From the IMG/VR virus record IMGVR_UViG_2541047837_000004: a stretch of 19,631 nucleotides of DNA. One strand, given 5' to 3'. Positions within the stretch are counted from its first letter, which is position 1. Each line of letters begins with the position of its first letter. The translations under genes and the position numbers were made by a program. The notes beneath the pieces are model-generated. The model did no database searches. It saw only the letters and a program-made list of their open reading frames with translations, and was not told the origin of the DNA. The stretch is from a virus. Taxonomy: Duplodnaviria > Heunggongvirae > Uroviricota > Caudoviricetes. Below, in pieces: positions 3,075 to 18,100 of this stretch.

Positions 3075-3326
3075 TTAGTCCTGATTTTTATCCACCCTGA
3101 GTAGTTCGCGCAGAGCAAAGGCATCCCCTTTTCTGGCAAGCTTAAACAATGCCGCTCGTAACTCGGCTTCACCTTTCGCTCTGCCCTTACGGATGGCCGC
3201 ATAAAAATCTGTCATTGCTTCCCGATTTTCTTTCAGTCGGTTCAGATCAACATCCAGAACGTCAGCGATTTGTTGTGCAGTCATCCGGCACGCTGCCAGA
3301 GACTCGACTTTCGAATACGGAATCAT
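3075..3326 (-). CDS. small HTH-like protein (83 aa), function unknown
   Basis: ORF with GGGGGTGA Shine-Dalgarno 6 nt upstream of ATG 3326. Stop TAA lies 3 nt before the terS ATG. HTH-like segment MTAQQIADVLDVD. Overlaps the 3' end of the upstream gene by 65 nt. Confidence 0.4.
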   Translation of the reverse strand: MIPYSKVESLAACRMTAQQIADVLDVDLNRLKENREAMTDFYAAIRKGRAKGEAELRAALFKLARKGDAFALRELLRVDKNQD

Positions 3327-4194
3327 TTGTCACCCCCATTGATATGCAGGGTGTCTTCTTCCTGTATTTTTCGTGAAGGATTTTTACTGCAGCGTTGTTC
3401 CAGGTGACCTGATGGTGAATGCGTTTATGGCTGGCACCCATCAGTGAGATTTTTACGCACGACGGCGCATACATGACGGAGTAAAAACTTTTAACGTAGG
3501 TTCCGGAATCCAGATACAGCTCGGTCATTCCGCCGCTGTTTTTCTGCGTCTGTTTCTGCCCTAACTGGACAGCACCGATCGTCATAAACAATTCACCACA
3601 GCGACCGAGATTCGTGTACGTATTCACATCCTCGTTAATGCGCCCCATGAATGAGAACGGTCGATCAACCGAACAGATAAAGCTGTTCATTGCCTTGCGT
3701 TTCACCCACGAAGCATGGCCGCCATTGTCACCAAGAAAATCCCCGCCCTGCGACATAGCGATGGAAAGAGCAGGTATTGATTCGTAGTACGCCAGCATTT
3801 CAGAAAGGATCGCATCCAGTTTCCTTATCGGAAAATAGGCCTGGTCATAGTTGCGATCCACCCGAAACTGGAACTCGTGATAATCATCATCGAGCTGAAT
3901 GAAGTATTTACACCCGACCAGTTTTGCCAGGTCGAAACAGGCATTACGGGCGTAAAAAATTGAGCGGCGGTCACAGAAATTATCGGCTTCGTCAAAACGA
4001 CTGGCGATATCGGCTTTGGAAAACACCAGCACCTGTTCACCAAATTCAGCCATGTACTGATGCCGTGTCTTATCTTCATCATCAACAACGATAAAAATTT
4101 TCCCGGTATAGCCAGCACGACGCAACGTCCGGTAAGTCAGAACTTTGTCCGGTCGCCCGTGAGTCAGAATAAAGGCGCAAAAATCATCACGCAT
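3262..4194 (-). CDS. GT-A fold (GT2-like) glycosyltransferase-like protein, soluble
   Basis: Motifs FILTHGRPD and KIFIVVDDEDKT resemble the GT2 pattern (IIPTYNR ... EIIVVDDGS), followed by a DxD-like YFIQLDDDY. No obvious transmembrane segments. AGGAGGAGG Shine-Dalgarno before ATG 4194, which overlaps the ParB-like gene stop by 8 nt. Confidence 0.5.
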   Translation of the reverse strand: MRDDFCAFILTHGRPDKVLTYRTLRRAGYTGKIFIVVDDEDKTRHQYMAEFGEQVLVFSKADIASRFDEADNFCDRRSIFYARNACFDLAKLVGCKYFIQLDDDYHEFQFRVDRNYDQAYFPIRKLDAILSEMLAYYESIPALSIAMSQGGDFLGDNGGHASWVKRKAMNSFICSVDRPFSFMGRINEDVNTYTNLGRCGELFMTIGAVQLGQKQTQKNSGGMTELYLDSGTYVKSFYSVMYAPSCVKISLMGASHKRIHHQVTWNNAAVKILHEKYRKKTPCISMGVTNDSVFESRVSGSVPDDCTTNR

Positions 4195-4978
4195 ATTCCT
4201 CCTCCTCACCACCATGCATGATCTCCACCATGCGCTGCGTCATCCGGACAAATCCATTTTCAATAGCCTGCTGATAATCAATGATCACCAGCGCCGACTC
4301 CTCGAAAAAACACTGAATTTCAGCGGGGGCGTGAGCGTAATAGTCCGCAATTCTGCTGAAATTAAACACCGTGTGACGTTCTGCCGCACACAGGAGGAAT
4401 TTCTCAATATCAGGCTCAAGGGACGCCGAACGTATCCGGCTGATCAGCTCCTGAGTTTTCGTATCGTCGTACAGTTCACTGATATCCGGTTTACCGCCCG
4501 ACGGCTCATAAACAGGCGTATCAATTTTCGTCGTATACGGCTCCTCCTCATTTCCTGTACCGGGCAAAACATCCGTCAACAGTTCATCAATTTCTGTCGG
4601 GATGAAGCCTGTCAGGGAGACATCAAAATCAGCATTGATTAGGTCCGACAGCTCCATCCGCAACAGATCTTCATCCCAGCCAGCATTCATCGGCAGGCGA
4701 TTATCTGCCAGGCGGTACGCCTTTTTCTGCTCATCCGTCAGGCCAGACAGAACAATGACCGGAACAGAATCCATTTTGAGCATTTCAGCCGCCATAACAC
4801 GACCGTGACCCGCAATAATTTCGCCCTTTTCGTCAATCAGCACCGGATTAGTCCAGCCGAATTGCTTAATACTTTCTACCAGTTGTGCCACCTGCTCAGT
4901 ACTGTGCGTCCTGGCGTTGTGCGCATACGGTGACAATTCTTGTAATGGGCGATAGACTATCTTTAATTTCTCGCTCAT
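4187..4978 (-). CDS. ParB-like nuclease domain protein
   Basis: N-terminal ParB/Srx-like motifs (YAHNARTHS, VLIDEKGEIIAGHGRVMAA, VPVIVL); acidic C-terminus; 263 aa. Confidence 0.75.
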   Translation of the reverse strand: MSEKLKIVYRPLQELSPYAHNARTHSTEQVAQLVESIKQFGWTNPVLIDEKGEIIAGHGRVMAAEMLKMDSVPVIVLSGLTDEQKKAYRLADNRLPMNAGWDEDLLRMELSDLINADFDVSLTGFIPTEIDELLTDVLPGTGNEEEPYTTKIDTPVYEPSGGKPDISELYDDTKTQELISRIRSASLEPDIEKFLLCAAERHTVFNFSRIADYYAHAPAEIQCFFEESALVIIDYQQAIENGFVRMTQRMVEIMHGGEEEEYA

Positions 4979-6710: not shown

Positions 6711-7175
6711 TTACTTTAAACACTGCTCGGTTATGTATTGCTGAGCACCTTCAAGTTGGGCCTGCATCATTACCAGTCGTTCCCGGAGGGTGAAATAATC
6801 CCGTTCAGCGGTGTCTGCCAGTCGGGGGGAGGCTGCATTATCCACGCCGGAGGCGGTGGTGGCTTCACGCACTGACTGATAGACTGCTTTGATGTGCAAC
6901 CGACGACGACCAGCGGCAACATCATCACGCAGAGCATCATTTTCAGCTTTCGCATCAGCTAACTCCTTCGTGTATTTTGCATCGAGCGCAGCAACATCAC
7001 GCTGACGCATCTGCATGTCAGTAATTGCCGCGTTCGCCAGCTTCAGTTCTCTGGCATTTTTGTCGCGCTGGGCTTTGTAGGTAATGGCGTTATCACGGTA
7101 ATGATTAACAGCCCATGACAGGCAGACGATGATGCAGATAACCAGAGCGGAGATAATCGCGGTTACTCTGTTCAT
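6711..7175 (-). CDS. rzpR: i-spanin Rz
   Basis: [38 protein letters not shown] closely resembles lambda Rz as recalled. ATG overlaps the endolysin stop (ATGA). Confidence 0.85.
6770..6955 (-). CDS. rzoR: o-spanin Rz1 lipoprotein (embedded in Rz, +1 frame)
   Basis: 61 aa, lipobox VVGC, proline-rich [16 protein letters not shown], lying wholly inside the Rz ORF in another frame. Confidence 0.8.
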
Positions 7176-7669
7176 TGCTGACCCCACAAACAGATTTCAC
7201 GCTCAATCTCACGACGAGTCATGAGACCTTTCCATTGCTTACCGCCAGCATATGTCCAGCGACGTAGCTGATCACATGCGCCTTTGATATCGCCCTGGTT
7301 TATTTTGCGAAGAAGCGTCGATGTTCTGAAATTGCCAGCACCCACGTTGTAAACGAATGAGTAAAGAGCGCCGCGCGTTGTTTCCGGTATATCGACTTTG
7401 ATGTACGGGTTAATTTGTCTGGCGACAGTGGCAAGGTCTTTATTCAAGAGTGTTTTGCATTCTGCTTTGGTATACGTTTTACCGAGCATGATGTCTTTTC
7501 CTGTATGCCCGTGACATACAGTCCATACACCAACAATATCTTTGTATGGTATGTAGCTGACACCTTCCAGACCATCGTTACCACTTGGGCCAGTGATTAA
7601 CACTGATGCTATAGCAATTGCTCCGCCACCAATAGCAGCAGCAACGACTTTTCGTAATGATGGAGGCAT
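7172..7669 (-). CDS. SAR endolysin (P21 R-like lysozyme)
   Basis: 165 aa with a Gly/Ala-rich N-terminal signal-anchor-release segment ([21 protein letters not shown]) and a lysozyme-like body; closely resembles phage 21 endolysin as recalled. Confidence 0.9.
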
Positions 7670-7884
7670 TATTCACCTCTCGCAGCCTTGCGCTTATCTT
7701 CTTTAATCTTGAAATAAAGGTTTGTCAGGTACGTCAGCAGGCCAAATACCAGACTACCCAGCACACCGATTGCAGCCCACTGTGACGGAGTTACTCTATC
7801 GAGCAACTGTAAAAACCAGTAGCCAGCACTGCCTGCGGAGGTGCCGTAGGCAATGCCTGTTGAAATTTTGTCCATGGATTTCAT
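7669..7884 (-). CDS. pinholin (S21-like) with dual-start motif
   Basis: [26 protein letters not shown]...: Met-Lys-Ser-Met dual start (ATG at 7884 and 7875) with GGAGGTGA Shine-Dalgarno; two transmembrane segments; 71/68 aa. Stop overlaps the endolysin ATG. Confidence 0.85.
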
Positions 7885-7980
7885 AGCCTCACCTCCGCAC
7901 GGAACGGATGGCATAGTTATTATGTGTAGGCTTTCAGACACATCAATCAGAGCCTTAATTGATATATATGCTGGAGACGA

Positions 7981-8010
7981 TGCAATATAAAAAGCTCGCC
8001 GTAGCGAGCT
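7981..8010 (-). terminator. intrinsic terminator downstream of lipoprotein gene 1
   Basis: Hairpin AGCTCGC-cgta-GCGAGCT at 7993-8010, followed on the minus strand by UUUUAUAUU. Confidence 0.45.
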
Positions 8011-8135: not shown

Positions 8136-8531
8136 CTAACCTCGCATGTCAAAGCCAGATTTCTGAAAATCTCTGTAGACTTCCGGATTGTTGAAGGCCG
8201 GAAATTTGGCTTTATGAGCTGCGGACTTTATCGCTTCGCAATAGGCTTTATCACCGTTACTGGTAGATATTTTTAACGCCGTGCCATCCTGAGAGAATTC
8301 CATATGCAACCTGCATTTTTTCCCTTTCCAGTTATGCGGCTCATCAAGTTTGGCATTAATTGCAGCTCTGATTCCCCGCGCTTGCGCCCCCCATTCATCC
8401 TGATCATCCCAGCGTCCTGAACTGCAACTACCTGTAGCAGTAGTTTTGTGGCAATCTGAAGGGTGTAAAGGTGTGCATCCCGTAACAAAACCGACCCAAA
8501 AAGTCAACATAACGATTTTCTTTAATCCCAC
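8136..8531 (-). CDS. lipoprotein with TolA domain III-like C-terminal domain
   Basis: GTG start with GAGGAG Shine-Dalgarno; signal peptide MGLKKIVMLTFWVGFVTGC with lipobox and Thr at +2. C-terminus KKCRLHMEFSQDGTALKISTSNGDKAYCEAIKSAAHKAKFPAFNNPEVYRDFQ parallels the TolA C-terminal domain as recalled. Confidence 0.65.
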   Translation of the reverse strand: MGLKKIVMLTFWVGFVTGCTPLHPSDCHKTTATGSCSSGRWDDQDEWGAQARGIRAAINAKLDEPHNWKGKKCRLHMEFSQDGTALKISTSNGDKAYCEAIKSAAHKAKFPAFNNPEVYRDFQKSGFDMRG

Positions 8532-8681
8532 TTCTTGCTCCTCAATCCATTAAAATCTCAGCAATAGTAGTTGTTACGTCCGCCACTGGCTCAGAGCTGA
8601 CTATCCGCTAAATTTAGCTCAGTGCCGTAGCTGTGTCAGAACAAACCTAAGCCGAAACCGTTTATTACAAAACAATAAATA

Positions 8682-9110
8682 TCAGGGTTTAAAATCCAGC
8701 ACCCCATTTTGAAATACTTTATATACTTCCGGCGAAGGGGGGGCAGGTATATCAGCATTCTTTATCGCATTCATCGCTTCACGACATAAATCGAGGTCTC
8801 CACTTTCTCTTTTAACCTCCAGTAGAAGGCCATTCGGGGCCATATGCATTCTCAGTGTACACTCTTTTCCTGAATACTTACTCGCATCCCCGAACTGTTT
8901 TTCGATGGCGCTCTTGATTTGATGGGCATACAGACGGATATCCTCACTAACATCAGAAGTACGTTCAGATGAACTCACATACTGTGTCTCTATTGCTTTA
9001 TCGGAGTAATATGATGTACGGTCATGATAATTTGTCGATACAGCATCAGTGCACCCGATAATAATCCCACTAATAATCAACGTAAGAATTGATGCGCTAC
9101 GAAAACCCAT
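8682..9110 (-). CDS. lipoprotein with TolA domain III-like C-terminal domain
   Basis: Signal peptide with lipobox IIGC and Thr at +2. C-terminal 80 aa (QIKSAIEKQFGDASKYSGKECTLRMHMAPNGLLLEVKRESGDLDLCREAMNAIKNADIPAPPSPEVYKVFQNGVLDFKP) align residue for residue with recalled E. coli TolA C-terminus (...GKTCTLRIKLAPDGMLLDIKPEGGDPALCQAA...PPSQAVYEVFKNAPLDFKP). Confidence 0.75.
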   Translation of the reverse strand: MGFRSASILTLIISGIIIGCTDAVSTNYHDRTSYYSDKAIETQYVSSSERTSDVSEDIRLYAHQIKSAIEKQFGDASKYSGKECTLRMHMAPNGLLLEVKRESGDLDLCREAMNAIKNADIPAPPSPEVYKVFQNGVLDFKP

Positions 9111-9139: not shown

Positions 9140-9169
9140 ATTATATATACCGTTGTTTTGGACGCTCAA
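9140..9169 (-). promoter_or_regulatory. sigma70-like promoter for lipoprotein gene 2
   Basis: Minus strand reads TTGAGC, 18-nt spacer, TATAAT, about 25 nt upstream of the ATG at 9110, which has a GAGGAAAA Shine-Dalgarno. Confidence 0.35.
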
Positions 9170-9698
9170 ACAGCGAATCAGATCAAATAAAACGCACATT
9201 TGTTAACATTTACACAAAGTCTGCGTGGGATATTCTGAAAGAATATCCATAATGTGGAGAGAATCTATTGAAGTGCATGGTGCCGGGTGCCTCCCGGTGA
9301 ACAAAATGTTCGTGATACCTGTCGGCGACAGAAAAGGTTAATGGTATCACCCCACCGCACAGGGGGATTCACCATGCAGGAGTTTTCTTAGCAAACTCAC
9401 TGCGCGCCCGGCAACTCCCAACCACATAAAATGCGGAGTTTGTGGCATTTATGCATATAACTAGCAGGAATTATCTTAAAAAACTGATGTCGATCCGGAT
9501 TAAAAAGAAGCAGGTCATCATCAGATGACTGGAAAAAAGGAAAACAAAAAATACTCATCATACAGTTTTGATTGCAGGGATGAGCCTGCTATGCACAATA
9601 TGCAGAATATAAGCAAGATAAAAATATGCAGGCATATTATTTCGGATTTTGTTATTAACACAACCTTTTTAATAATCATTTGGCATACAATAAACCAG

Positions 9699-9727
9699 CC
9701 CAAAAAGAACCGCCTAAACAGGCGGTT
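9699..9727 (-). terminator. intrinsic terminator (second of a tandem pair)
   Basis: Stem AACCGCC-taaaca-GGCGGTT at 9708-9727, followed on the minus strand by CUUUUUGGG. Confidence 0.45.
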
Positions 9728-10047: not shown

Positions 10048-10075
10048 AAAAAAACCGCATTAAGCGGTTTTTTTA
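10048..10075. terminator. bidirectional intrinsic terminator
   Basis: AAAAAAACCGC-attaa-GCGGTTTTTTT: GC stem flanked by an A-run and a T-run, so it is functional on either strand. It lies about 80 nt downstream of the 153-aa ORF stop on the minus strand. Confidence 0.6.
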
Positions 10076-10154: not shown

Positions 10155-10616
10155 TCAAGCCATTTTCTCAGCGAATGATTCTCGCATGGGAATGTATAGC
10201 GCATACTCAGCAACGGCCAACCAATTAGCAATTCGCTTTTCGCATGTGCTAAAACACCACTCTGGGTGTGCATCATTTAGCAATTCAGCCATTTTGCGTT
10301 TGGTCATCCCCCGCCCCTCATACCGTTGCCGAAGGACGCTAATCAATCCTGGATGCTCTGCCAGCACCTCACTTATGACCCGATCAATACATAACGCCTC
10401 TGCATCAGTACAATGCGCCAGCCAGCTCTTTTGCTTACCGTTAATCATATCCCGCAAAAAAGCCTCAAGTTCAGACTTGTTCAGACCTGCTTTTTTCATC
10501 CTCCGGAGCGCCTCGTTAATTGCCGTTTTTGTCAGCTTTTTAGAGGCCAACAACTGGTTGAACATATTCCCCGTCTTTCCGGTAAACGGCTTGGACTGCA
10601 TCATCATGCGCATCAA
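10155..10616 (-). CDS. hypothetical protein, candidate late-gene regulator (Q-like by position only)
   Basis: Last ORF of the leftward early operon, directly upstream of the tandem terminators and the lysis region. Four Cys (C-x6-C, C-x4-C). Start is uncertain: Met codons at 10616, 10601 and 10565, the last with a purine-rich Shine-Dalgarno. Overlaps ydaT by 26-77 nt. Confidence 0.45.
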   Translation of the reverse strand: MMRMMMQSKPFTGKTGNMFNQLLASKKLTKTAINEALRRMKKAGLNKSELEAFLRDMINGKQKSWLAHCTDAEALCIDRVISEVLAEHPGLISVLRQRYEGRGMTKRKMAELLNDAHPEWCFSTCEKRIANWLAVAEYALYIPMRESFAEKMA

Positions 10617-10947
10617 TTGCCGTACTTAACGCTTCCTGCGCCGCCAGTAATGCACGGCGTTCCAGGGTATCGAAGATGCAGAGTCGGTGACGCAGCTCGC
10701 GCGGAAGGATTGCCAGAATTGCTGGGATCAGCTTCTGAATTTTTTCTCTTTGCGTTTTCGTTTCACCTTTCAACCAACGGTGATAGATATTCTGCTGATT
10801 GTTCCAGTCCTTGCCTGGAACCAGGGGCAATTCGCCGCCCCCCTGGCGCAGATATTCTTCAGTAATTGCATTGGCTACCCATGCCTGCCCTTTTTCGGCT
10901 GCTAGGGCAAACAACACTGATTCGATGTGCTCATGCTTGATTTTCAT
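10540..10947 (-). CDS. ydaT: Rac prophage protein YdaT
   Basis: MKIKHEHIESVLFALAAEKGQAWVANAITEEYLRQ... matches recalled Rac YdaT; immediately downstream of ydaS. Confidence 0.8.
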   Translation of the reverse strand: MKIKHEHIESVLFALAAEKGQAWVANAITEEYLRQGGGELPLVPGKDWNNQQNIYHRWLKGETKTQREKIQKLIPAILAILPRELRHRLCIFDTLERRALLAAQEALSTAIDAHDDAVQAVYRKDGEYVQPVVGL

Positions 10948-10969
10948 GAATCATTTGCCTCTTGATGTT

Positions 10970-11266
10970 TCAGGTATGATCAAATGAGGATTTGTTACTG
11001 TCATTTAGTTGCTTCACTGACATATTCTGCGAACAACATGCCGAACGTCGTAAATATGACCAGTCAATATCAGGACGAAGTTCTTCGCACAGAACCTCAC
11101 CTCTTGTTGCACGTTCAATTGCTGGACATCTCTCGGCAGGCAATTGACGTACCCCTTTGATCCATTGATTTACGCTTGGAGGTGATACACCTAAAAGCCT
11201 AGCCATTGCTGATTGCCCACCGACAACAGCACAAGCTTGCTTGAATGAATAGTTCTCATTTTTCAT
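10970..11266 (-). CDS. ydaS: Cro-like HTH regulator YdaS
   Basis: 98 aa, MKNENYSFKQACAVVGGQSAMARLLGVSPPSVNQWIKG (HTH); diverges from racR; TGGAG Shine-Dalgarno. Confidence 0.85.
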   Translation of the reverse strand: MKNENYSFKQACAVVGGQSAMARLLGVSPPSVNQWIKGVRQLPAERCPAIERATRGEVLCEELRPDIDWSYLRRSACCSQNMSVKQLNDSNKSSFDHT

Positions 11267-17703: not shown

Positions 17704-17898
17704 ATGAGATATGACAATGTTAAACCATGTCCATTTTGTGGTTGTCCATCAGTAACGGTGAAAGCCATTTCAGGATATTACCGAGCGAAGTGTAACGGAT
17801 GCGAATCCCGAACCGGTTATGGTGGAAGTGAAAAAGAAGCACTCGAAAGATGGAATAAACGAACCACTGGAAATAATAATGGAGGTGTTCATGTATAA
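17704..17898 (+). CDS. ralR: restriction alleviation protein RalR (Lar)
   Basis: 64 aa MRYDNVKPCPFCGCPSVTVKAISGYYRAKCNGCESRTGYGGSEKEALERWNKR, with four-Cys zinc-ribbon-like spacing. Confidence 0.85.
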   Translation: MRYDNVKPCPFCGCPSVTVKAISGYYRAKCNGCESRTGYGGSEKEALERWNKRTTGNNNGGVHV

Positions 17899-18100
17899 AA
17901 TTACCGCCACTATTGAAAAGGAAGGTGGCACTCCTACTAACTGGACAAGATATTCAAAATCTAAACTAACGAAATCAGAATGCGAAAAAATGCTCTCAGG
18001 TAAAAAAGAAGCAGGCGTTTCCAGAGAGCAGAAAGTAAAACTGATAAATTTTAATTGCGAGAAACTTCAGTCCTCGAGAATTGCATTGTATTCAAATTAA
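17891..18100 (+). CDS. ydaC: Rac prophage protein YdaC
   Basis: 69 aa from MYKITATIEKEGGTPTNWTRYSK; GGAGG Shine-Dalgarno; overlaps the ralR stop by 8 nt. Confidence 0.8.
   Translation: MYKITATIEKEGGTPTNWTRYSKSKLTKSECEKMLSGKKEAGVSREQKVKLINFNCEKLQSSRIALYSN

Follow-up and report, generated by a model that had tools for sequence, protein, structure and literature searches.

The stretch of viral DNA analyzed here, referred to as the window, comprises 19,631 nucleotides (nt) of an IMG/VR virus record (IMGVR_UViG_2541047837_000004, Caudoviricetes) and has the same sequence as a degraded Rac-like prophage of Escherichia coli LR-64-2. Two small genes on its minus strand encode predicted lipoprotein precursors that end in a copy of the C-terminal domain III of TolA (TolAIII), i.e., the host domain that serves as the shared gateway of group A colicins and filamentous phages and as the force-delivery point of the Tol-Pal system. 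The list of open reading frames (ORFs) places these genes at positions 8682-9110, for a protein of 142 amino acids (aa), and 8136-8531, for one of 131 aa, in agreement with an earlier reading of this locus from its sequence (hereafter the original prediction).

Two predicted outer-membrane lipoproteins

The 142-aa ORF begins with ATG behind a GAGG Shine-Dalgarno motif and the 131-aa ORF with GTG behind GAGGAG; the GTG start is supported by plasmid homologues of this gene, which carry ATG at the same codon. Lipoprotein signals were read straight from the translations using the lipobox pattern [LVI][ASTVI][GAS]C. The signal peptide of the 142-aa protein (residues 1-19; 9051-9110, minus strand) leads into the lipobox I17-I18-G19-C20 (9051-9062) with T21 at position +2 (MGFRSASILTLIISGIIIG-C20-T). 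For the 131-aa protein, the signal peptide MGLKKIVMLTFWVGF (8475-8531, minus strand) runs from the GTG start to the lipobox V16-T17-G18-C19 (8475-8486), which is followed by T20 (MGLKKIVMLTFWVGFVTG-C19-T). Both n-regions are charged (R4 or K4K5) and a hydrophobic stretch stands before each lipobox (signals MGFRSASILTLIISGIIIGC and MGLKKIVMLTFWVGFVTGC). In E. coli, Asp at +2 is the Lol-avoidance signal, and other residues at this position direct lipoproteins to the outer membrane. All parts of an outer-membrane lipoprotein signal, i.e., a charged n-region, an h-region, a lipobox, and a +2 residue other than Asp, can be read in both translations, and we infer that both proteins would be lipidated and sorted to the outer membrane. 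The lipoboxes IIGC and VTGC with their Thr at +2 had been named in the original prediction, and the lipobox is kept in both families.

Behind the anchor, the 142-aa protein has a linker of ~34 residues (8949-9050, minus strand) that is predicted to be disordered and evolves faster, followed by the TolAIII domain at residues 55-142 (8685-8948, minus strand). The mature N-terminus of the 131-aa protein (TPLHPSDCHKTTATGSCSSGRWDDQDEWG; 8388-8474, minus strand) is specific to its family, contains two extra Cys, and is nearly invariant across genera (columns P21-G48 of the family alignment); the TolAIII domain of this protein comprises residues 44-131 (8139-8402, minus strand).

RefSeq (NZ_AP027595.1) annotates the 142-aa gene as a tolA pseudogene, “incomplete, missing N-terminus” (10783-11043, i.e., window positions 8682-8942), and begins the 131-aa gene at the internal Met8 (10237-10611, window positions 8136-8510), so that the n-region is lost. 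Plasmid annotations put the start of 131-aa-family genes 12 codons too early. The RefSeq miscalls of these genes are a systematic annotation error.

Both proteins end in a homologue of TolA domain III

The Pfam profile PF06519 (gathering cut-off 25 bits) matches the 142-aa protein with 82.6 bits (E 2.4e-23, profile positions 4-96 of 96) and the 131-aa protein with 54.6 bits (E 1.3e-14, positions 10-92 of 96). Searches with phmmer against TolAIII chains in the PDB (1s62, 3qdp, 2x9a, and 1tol) gave E-values of 5e-28 and 5e-9, respectively. As the original prediction had it, the C-terminus of the 142-aa protein aligns with TolAIII without gaps (52/88 residues or 59% identical to E. coli TolA 334-421) and shares both Cys and the terminal LDFKP, which is identical to that of TolA. 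The 131-aa protein keeps the Cys pair, too, and is more diverged, as had also been noted (27/88 residues or 31%); the conserved Cys of both proteins correspond to Cys363 and Cys388 of TolA.

Predicted structures agree with the sequence comparison. AlphaFold models the domain of the 142-aa protein with moderate confidence (predicted local confidence, pLDDT, ~75) and that of the 131-aa protein with a pLDDT above 90, and both models show the TolAIII layout of a helix, a short helix, two strands, two helices, and a last strand. In Foldseek searches, the 142-aa model superposes on TolAIII 2x9a_B with a TM of 0.84 and a root-mean-square deviation (rmsd) of 1.9 Å and the 131-aa model on TolAIII 3qdp with a TM of 0.90 and an rmsd of 1.1 Å. 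The top matches are all solved TolAIII structures, and TonB C-terminal domains come next, far behind. Residues 1-52 of the 142-aa model have a pLDDT below 50 and residues 1-40 of the 131-aa model are of low confidence, so that the N-terminal 40-52 residues of the models are consistent with a flexible tether. A comparison to TolAIII at the level of profiles and predicted structures had been put forward in the original prediction as its check, and PF06519, phmmer, and Foldseek all match; the TolAIII resemblance of both proteins is true homology, far beyond chance.

Neither protein is a full-length TolA. The model NF007065 scores 107.8 bits for the 142-aa and 53.7 bits for the 131-aa protein against a cut-off of 213; for TIGR02794 (cut-off 59.45), the 131-aa protein stays below with 47.2 bits and the 142-aa protein passes with 75.6 bits, yet aligns only at model positions 265-362. 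All these alignments are confined to the last 80-100 model positions. TolA orthology is ruled out by the missing domain I membrane anchor, the missing helical domain II, and the position outside of a tolQRA-tolB-pal operon. Compared with E. coli TolA (domain III structures 1S62, 3QDP, 1TOL, 2X9A, and 3QDR), the window proteins therefore share the Pfam domain, the fold, and the disulphide Cys pair, as well as LDFKP in case of the 142-aa protein, but carry a lipoprotein signal in place of domains I and II and are predicted to hang from the outer membrane rather than being energized by TolQR. The 131-aa protein further differs from TolA by its diverged edge strands and the extra conserved N-terminal motif.

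Edge strands for ligand docking and the decoy proposal

The N1 domain of the filamentous-phage protein g3p (g3p-N1), colicin N (ColN), and the N-terminus of TolB each add a strand to β3 of TolAIII (residues 415-421), with the backbone amides of D418 and K420 as key contacts and side-chain identity being secondary (PMC4339652). Colicin A adds to β2 (residues 375-380) at the opposite edge (PMC3365938). TolAIII binds ColN and g3p with dissociation constants (Kd) of ~1 µM and TolB with ~40 µM, and the filamentous phages whose g3p docks on TolAIII use F and I pili as their receptors (PDB 1tol, 2x9a). Judged by the structural work on β3 (PMC4339652), both window proteins retain the relevant features, i.e., the Cys pair and a β3 edge strand without proline at the positions of 418 and 420. 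In the 142-aa protein, β3 reads GVLDFKP vs. APLDFKP in TolA and β2 reads LLEVKR vs. LLDIKP. The edge strands of the 131-aa protein, SGFDMRG (β3) and ALKIST (β2), are compatible with a strand and have no proline at the key positions (FDMR). The residues equivalent to D418 and K420 are D139 and K141 in the 142-aa protein and D128 and R130 in the 131-aa protein.

Free copies of this domain have been used in the laboratory. Levengood-Freyermuth in 1993 and Click and Webster in 1997 reportedly found that periplasmic TolAIII in wild-type E. coli causes tolerance to colicins and Ff phage together with a leaky envelope; taken together with Henry in 2004 and Howard in 2001, exported free TolAIII or TonB C-terminal domain is said to result in colicin or phage tolerance, leakiness, or vesicles. 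A periplasmic TonB C-terminal domain likewise reportedly blocks TonB-dependent uptake. In these constructs, a motor-uncoupled copy of a hub domain competes with the native protein, which is the mechanism that we propose here. However, the laboratory constructs were artificial, soluble, and over-expressed, whereas the window proteins are natural, predicted to be lipid-anchored, under purifying selection, and borne by mobile elements.

Applied to the window, the mechanism would begin with the export of each lipoprotein, its lipidation at Cys20 or Cys19, and Lol sorting to the periplasmic side of the outer membrane, where a flexible tether of 25-35 residues would hold a free TolAIII fold. Such a copy would expose the edge strands with which Tol-dependent invaders pair on the real TolA but would be uncoupled from the TolQR motor because it lacks TolA domains I and II and is anchored in the wrong membrane. 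A captured ligand would then be held unproductively at the outer membrane, just where ligands emerge, and the carrier cell would become tolerant to group A colicins and pilus-specific filamentous phages. Given the affinities of ~1 µM for the invaders vs. ~40 µM for TolB, moderate amounts of decoy would favor invader capture over disruption of Tol-Pal. We tentatively propose, at somewhat less than even confidence, that both proteins are tethered to the outer membrane as decoys of this kind, directed at Tol-dependent colicins and at filamentous phages; ligand binding, expression in the lysogen, and a protective phenotype are what we infer from the features described.

A moron locus between Q and the lysis genes

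From the integrase end, the window contains intR, recET, racR, ydaS, ydaT, a truncated DUF1133 Q-like gene, ~1 kb of non-coding DNA, and the TolAIII lipoprotein pair; past this pair follow a terminator-like hairpin, a P21-type holin gene, lysozyme, Rz, and trkG (all features detailed here lie on the minus strand). The Q-like gene (10155-10616; DUF1133 of YdaW type according to Pfam) is N-terminally truncated, in line with the RefSeq remark “missing N-terminus”. The non-coding DNA between it and the 142-aa gene contains terminator-like hairpins at 10048-10074 and 9708-9727 found by a hairpin scan and, 110 nt upstream of the 142-aa gene, an element resembling the small RNA (sRNA) STnc100 of Rfam (9221-9407; 86.6 bits vs. 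a gathering score of 47). On the other side, the hairpin scan revealed an intrinsic-terminator-like hairpin with a T-run between the 131-aa gene and the holin gene (7993-8010), and the lysis cassette (6711-7941) is composed of the P21-type holin gene at 7669-7941 (PF04971, essD), the lysozyme gene at 7172-7669 (PF00959, rrrD), and Rz at 6711-7187 (PF03245, rzpD). The placement of the pair between Q-side terminators and the lysis cassette that the original prediction described is thus borne out by the hairpins at 10048-10074 and 9708-9727 on one side and the holin gene on the other. The GC content of the gene pair region is 0.40-0.46, compared to 0.47-0.53 in its flanks.

A sigma-70-like promoter candidate (TTGAGC-18-TATAAT, 10/12 matches; 9140-9169) lies 30 nt upstream of the 142-aa start, and a weaker one (CTGACA-17-TAAATT, 9/12 matches and not above chance; 8611-8639) precedes the 131-aa gene. 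Our scan of the region found 11 promoter-like sites vs. 7.2 ± 2.4 in shuffled sequences, so these hexamers are no evidence on their own. As to the promoter-like or terminator elements that each gene had been thought to possess, one good terminator-like hairpin (8010-7993) comes after the 131-aa gene, and the promoter-like sites are not enriched over shuffles. Similarly, the comparison to the lambdoid location of stx or bor holds for the stx slot (Q to S) but not for bor, which is located downstream of Rz.

The 1.5-kb segment with the gene pair is present at a coverage of at least 80% in 771 of 5426 complete E. coli genomes (~14%). The Rac prophage of K-12 MG1655 (1422752-1425239) runs from ydaW (DUF1133) directly to an rzpR remnant and trkG and has lost the TolAIII pair together with holin and endolysin, while the Rac variant of the window has lost ydaU and ydaV instead. 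The absence of the whole segment from K-12 Rac is probably why these genes have escaped study. The only deposited phage that carries them is the intact phage mEp460_ev081, in which they lie between Q and the holin gene. For a broader view of viral loci we used IMG/VR, where 78 viral contigs carry the genes. There, the 142-aa type is always co-oriented between a Q gene (of DUF1133 or Antiterm type) and a downstream block, which is either the 131-aa gene with the lysis cassette or NanS-p with a holin gene. This order of Q-like gene, 142-aa gene, optional 131-aa gene, and then holin or NanS-p recurs across 60 viral loci, among which several different types of Q and of lysis cassette are represented. 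In Stx-phage-like scaffolds, the 142-aa type follows tRNA genes and precedes STnc100 and AsxR, i.e., it sits in the stx slot. Location between conserved late genes and presence or absence among related phages are marks of a lambdoid moron, and both are found here.

Such a location could also speak for a role in lysis. A tethered TolAIII might titrate the N-terminus of TolB and weaken the mobilization of Pal, so that expression in the late phase would loosen the outer membrane, with vesicles or leakage helping lysis or the release of phage or cargo. The genes retain the β3 site that is used by TolB and are, in all 60 viral loci with the 142-aa type, co-oriented downstream of Q and immediately upstream of holin, endolysin, and Rz. 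In addition, periplasmic TolAIII raises vesicle output according to what Henry reportedly described in 2004. Defects in tol-pal cause blebbing and vesicles (PMC7391070). However, the affinity of TolA for TolB is weak (40 µM), a terminator-like hairpin parts the genes from the holin gene as is typical of a moron rather than a lysis gene, and canonical lysis cassettes work without them, e.g., in DLP12 of K-12 and in lambda, which lack these genes. Furthermore, an 87%-identical protein is encoded on conjugative plasmids and chromosomal islets that have no obvious gain from a weak outer membrane. We consider this modulation of Tol-Pal, an alternative that the original prediction had also raised, unlikely as the main function; the context as a whole points to a benefit for the host cell, as the decoy proposal would have it, and not to a role in lysis.

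Several other observations at these loci concern neighboring elements. STnc100 is found just downstream of the 142-type gene in phage loci L063 and L081 (in two copies) and upstream of it in L002, and it adjoins AsxR in L063; this sRNA seems to belong to the conserved elements of the moron region from Q to S. Elsewhere in the window, between trkG and the terminase genes, a 317-aa ORF (3262-4215, minus strand) matches the Pfam family TAGT (TET-associated glycosyltransferase; E 4e-35) and adjoins a ParB_N-like ORF (4187-4978, minus strand); these two may be the remnant of a phage DNA-hypermodification module in the Rac-like prophage. As expected for Rac, the antitoxin sRNA RalA of the RalR/RalA type I toxin-antitoxin system is encoded at 17897-18075 (minus strand; 225 bits).

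Two separate families under purifying selection

Both genes are under purifying selection. Compared with a 66%-identical allele, the ratio of non-synonymous to synonymous substitution rates (dN/dS) of the 142-aa gene is 0.36 over the full length, with 0.25 for the domain and 0.49 for the signal and linker. For the 131-aa gene, dN/dS is 0.08-0.12 in comparison to copies from pO157, an IncK plasmid, Citrobacter, Enterobacter, and Serratia. Alleles of the 142-aa gene that are 65-91% identical preserve the ORF, the lipobox, and the domain, with G19-C20-T21 invariant in the alignment. A minority of alleles (P0010 and P0036) has a 3' frameshift that swaps the last ~17-20 residues including LDFKP of β3 for unrelated sequence; these would be without the proposed binding edge.

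These data bear on the suspicion that the locus is mere debris, i.e., that the 142-aa ORF is a 3' fragment of tolA acquired by a phage and the 131-aa ORF a decaying copy. RefSeq's tolA pseudogene label for the 142-aa gene, the degraded state of the prophage, and the alleles frameshifted near the C-terminus (P0010 and P0036) could all be read in this way. Yet both ORFs are complete with ribosome-binding sites and a lipoprotein signal of their own, alleles as low as 65% identity keep lipobox and domain, dN/dS is well under 1 even in the N-terminal part, and the genes are carried by the intact phage mEp460 and 78 viral contigs. Conservation and dN/dS thus contradict a pseudogene, recent capture from E. 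coli is ruled out by an identity to TolA of only 59%, and we regard debris as very improbable. When the 142-aa domain by itself was used in a word-indexed search for its donor, all matches belonged to its own family, and none was a full-length TolA nearer to it.

The two genes had been called paralogous in the original prediction, which is acceptable at the level of the superfamily but not for a close pair. Their domains share 25/88 residues (28%), and the 142-aa protein is nearer to host TolA than to its 131-aa neighbor. The 142-aa family is limited to prophages of Escherichia and Shigella and its gene is often found without the 131-aa gene, while the 131-aa family (365 clusters at 90% identity) extends widely across Enterobacterales, where plasmids, prophages, and chromosomal islets carry it. 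Tandem duplication was rejected based on the low domain identity, the unlike distributions of the families, and the frequent occurrence of the 142-aa gene alone; these genes are two separate families side by side.

More distant relatives share the lipoprotein architecture. A HMMER scan of 1.84 billion representatives returned 629 relatives, the best 150 of which include 75 complete proteins (M or V start) of 105-165 aa. Among these, 55/75 have a lipobox, and none of the 55 carries Asp at +2. As read from these sequences, predicted targeting to the outer membrane is a trait of the family, and stand-alone TolAIII with a predicted lipid anchor represents a diverse and widespread, apparently unstudied family.

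Relatives on plasmids and chromosomes

Copies 87% identical to the 131-aa protein are found on ~600 plasmids of PLSDB, and the complete E. coli genomes contain 526 plasmid places of this family. On IncI1 and IncK/Z plasmids (I-complex with MPF_I pili), the nikA-nikB relaxase operon is followed after 67 nt by a 131-aa-family gene in the same orientation (7004-7435 in loci L021/L022 and 4965-5396 in L024), and this gene is probably co-transcribed with the operon. A paper describing transposon-directed insertion-site sequencing (TraDIS) of I-complex plasmids mentions neither “TolA” nor a gene downstream of nikB. In pO157, the 131-aa-family gene is found past psiB, psiA, and hok. In chromosomes of Citrobacter, Enterobacter, and Serratia, the 131-aa family appears as a single-gene insert in unrelated contexts, one chromosomal copy being located at the edge of an integrated element. 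Nearly all contexts of TolAIII lipoproteins that we examined are mobile or accessory. In Serratia marcescens (L017/L018, 6001-8736), the gene is found immediately upstream of GmrSD-like and HEPN-domain genes in a setting that resembles a defense island.

The 131-aa family has an almost invariant mature N-terminus with two extra Cys (PLHPSxCHKTTATGSCSSGRWDDQDEWG) in Escherichia, Citrobacter, Enterobacter, Klebsiella, and Serratia; this motif equals or surpasses the TolAIII domain in conservation and must therefore be more than a tether. The family might thus have its own, partner-specific role apart from the capture of invaders, e.g., in conjugation, mating-pair formation or entry exclusion, or at the envelope, exerted through this motif and the TolA-like fold. 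Besides the near-invariance of the motif, the very low dN/dS, the position of the gene right behind the relaxase operon of I-complex plasmids, and the DsbC-like gene adjoining a Klebsiella IncF homologue would be in line with such a role. On the other hand, the 131-aa gene also occurs at moron loci of prophages and in chromosomal settings without plasmids, and the likeness of its motif to the TolB box of colicins is weak. Mimicry of this box (DG(S/T)GWSSE...W) by the motif SSGRWDDQDEWG was accordingly rated as weak, with a Trp spacing of 6 vs. 7 and no Asp-Gly core. Overall, we give a separate role of the 131-aa family a low probability, lower still than that of Tol-Pal modulation.

Further relatives from Klebsiella lead back to the proposed decoys. 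Klebsiella IncFIB/FII plasmids encode a third lipoprotein TolAIII that adjoins a DsbC-like gene. On cloacin-type ColRNAI plasmids of Klebsiella (10-12 kb), the gene of a 123-aa lipoprotein TolAIII overlaps by 4 nt with a gene encoding a 121-aa TonB C-terminal domain with a signal peptide; in the K. pneumoniae plasmid NZ_CP028788.2, this pair (L003, 5908-6641) lies beside an operon of a colicin-like tRNase, immunity, and lysis genes. ColRNAI plasmids with such a pair are common in K. pneumoniae, and, as far as their sequences tell, the two products would be decoys for both import hubs. The only mention of the Klebsiella cloacin-plasmid TolAIII lipoprotein that our literature search found is an annotation remark (PMC10269471). 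The ColRNAI and IncF proteins share the architecture of the window proteins (lipobox LTAC or ITAC, linker, and a TolAIII ending in LDFRP or LDFRL) and are likewise mobile-element-borne, with 39-48% identity to the 142-aa protein or TolA, but they form a separate subfamily. Unlike the prophage pair, the Col-plasmid gene overlaps with a TonB C-terminal-domain gene and sits beside a bacteriocin/immunity/lysis operon.

Discussion

Small outer-membrane lipoproteins encoded by accessory genes of mobile elements are a familiar theme, and Llp of T5, Cor of phi80, N15, and mEp167, TraT of F, and Bor of lambda block the entry of competitors or alter the cell surface. Llp and Cor do so by binding the receptor FhuA, and none of the four is known to hold a copy of a host import-hub domain. 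Scans with Pfam, PHROG, and PADLOC revealed no sequence relation of the window proteins to Llp, Cor, TraT, or Bor.

What the original prediction said of the TolAIII homology, the lipoprotein signal with a +2 residue other than Asp, and the moron placement from Q to S was upheld by sequence, profile, predicted structure, and comparison of loci; the word “paralogous” overstates how close the two proteins are. Its idea of a decoy giving exclusion fits the retained β3 edge strand and the carriage on I-complex, F-type, and bacteriocin plasmids. A protective role accords best with two comparative findings, namely the carriage of these genes on plasmids that encode F and I pili, i.e., the receptors of filamentous phages, and the occurrence of a TolA copy together with a TonB copy on a bacteriocin plasmid.

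Several points weigh against the decoy proposal. Our full-text literature search found no functional study of these proteins, no PADLOC model matched at E <= 0.1, and the matching PHROG family (5772) bears the label “unknown function”. In the 131-aa family, identity to TolAIII is as low as 31% and the side chains of β2 and β3 are altered, yet its extreme conservation across genera together with the invariant Cys-containing N-terminal motif suggests one specific conserved partner rather than mimicry for many ligands. This diverged β2/β3 surface and the invariant motif are beyond what simple mimicry explains. The position of the genes in the late operon, directly ahead of the holin gene, makes expression in the lytic phase equally plausible. 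Predictions of own promoters were not above chance, and the Q-like gene is truncated in the window, so any expression is only presumed. Finally, a decoy would compete for TolB, too, at a possible cost.

It is possible, though we hold this with somewhat less confidence than the decoy proposal for the window pair itself, that the principle is a general one among mobile elements of Enterobacterales. Lambdoid prophages, conjugative plasmids of the I-complex and F-type, and Col plasmids would then encode tethered or secreted copies of TolAIII, and sometimes of the TonB C-terminal domain, as import decoys that confer broad colicin tolerance and shield the hosts of pilus-encoding plasmids from filamentous phages.

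The TolAIII domain of these proteins and its annotation are already known; our literature search found no description of their architecture as lipoproteins, their division into two families, their spread over prophages and over conjugative and Col plasmids, or the decoy hypothesis. The locus also exposes annotation errors, i.e., tolA pseudogene calls and truncated starts. Complete E. coli genomes contain the pair in ~14% of cases, the 131-aa family is found on ~600 plasmids including pO157 and I-complex resistance plasmids, and K-12 provides a natural null background for the gene pair. The locus suggests that the entry block reported for free TolAIII is used naturally, with a lipid anchor and on several kinds of mobile elements. 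If true, the colicin tolerance that is widespread among natural E. coli isolates might be explained in part; this would also bear on the use of colicins or filamentous phages against plasmid-bearing pathogens, and the genes would serve as natural tools for tuning Tol-Pal and the output of vesicles. Hub-domain decoys, i.e., mimicry of an uptake hub, would then constitute a new principle of defense against phages and bacteriocins that is absent from current defense catalogues.

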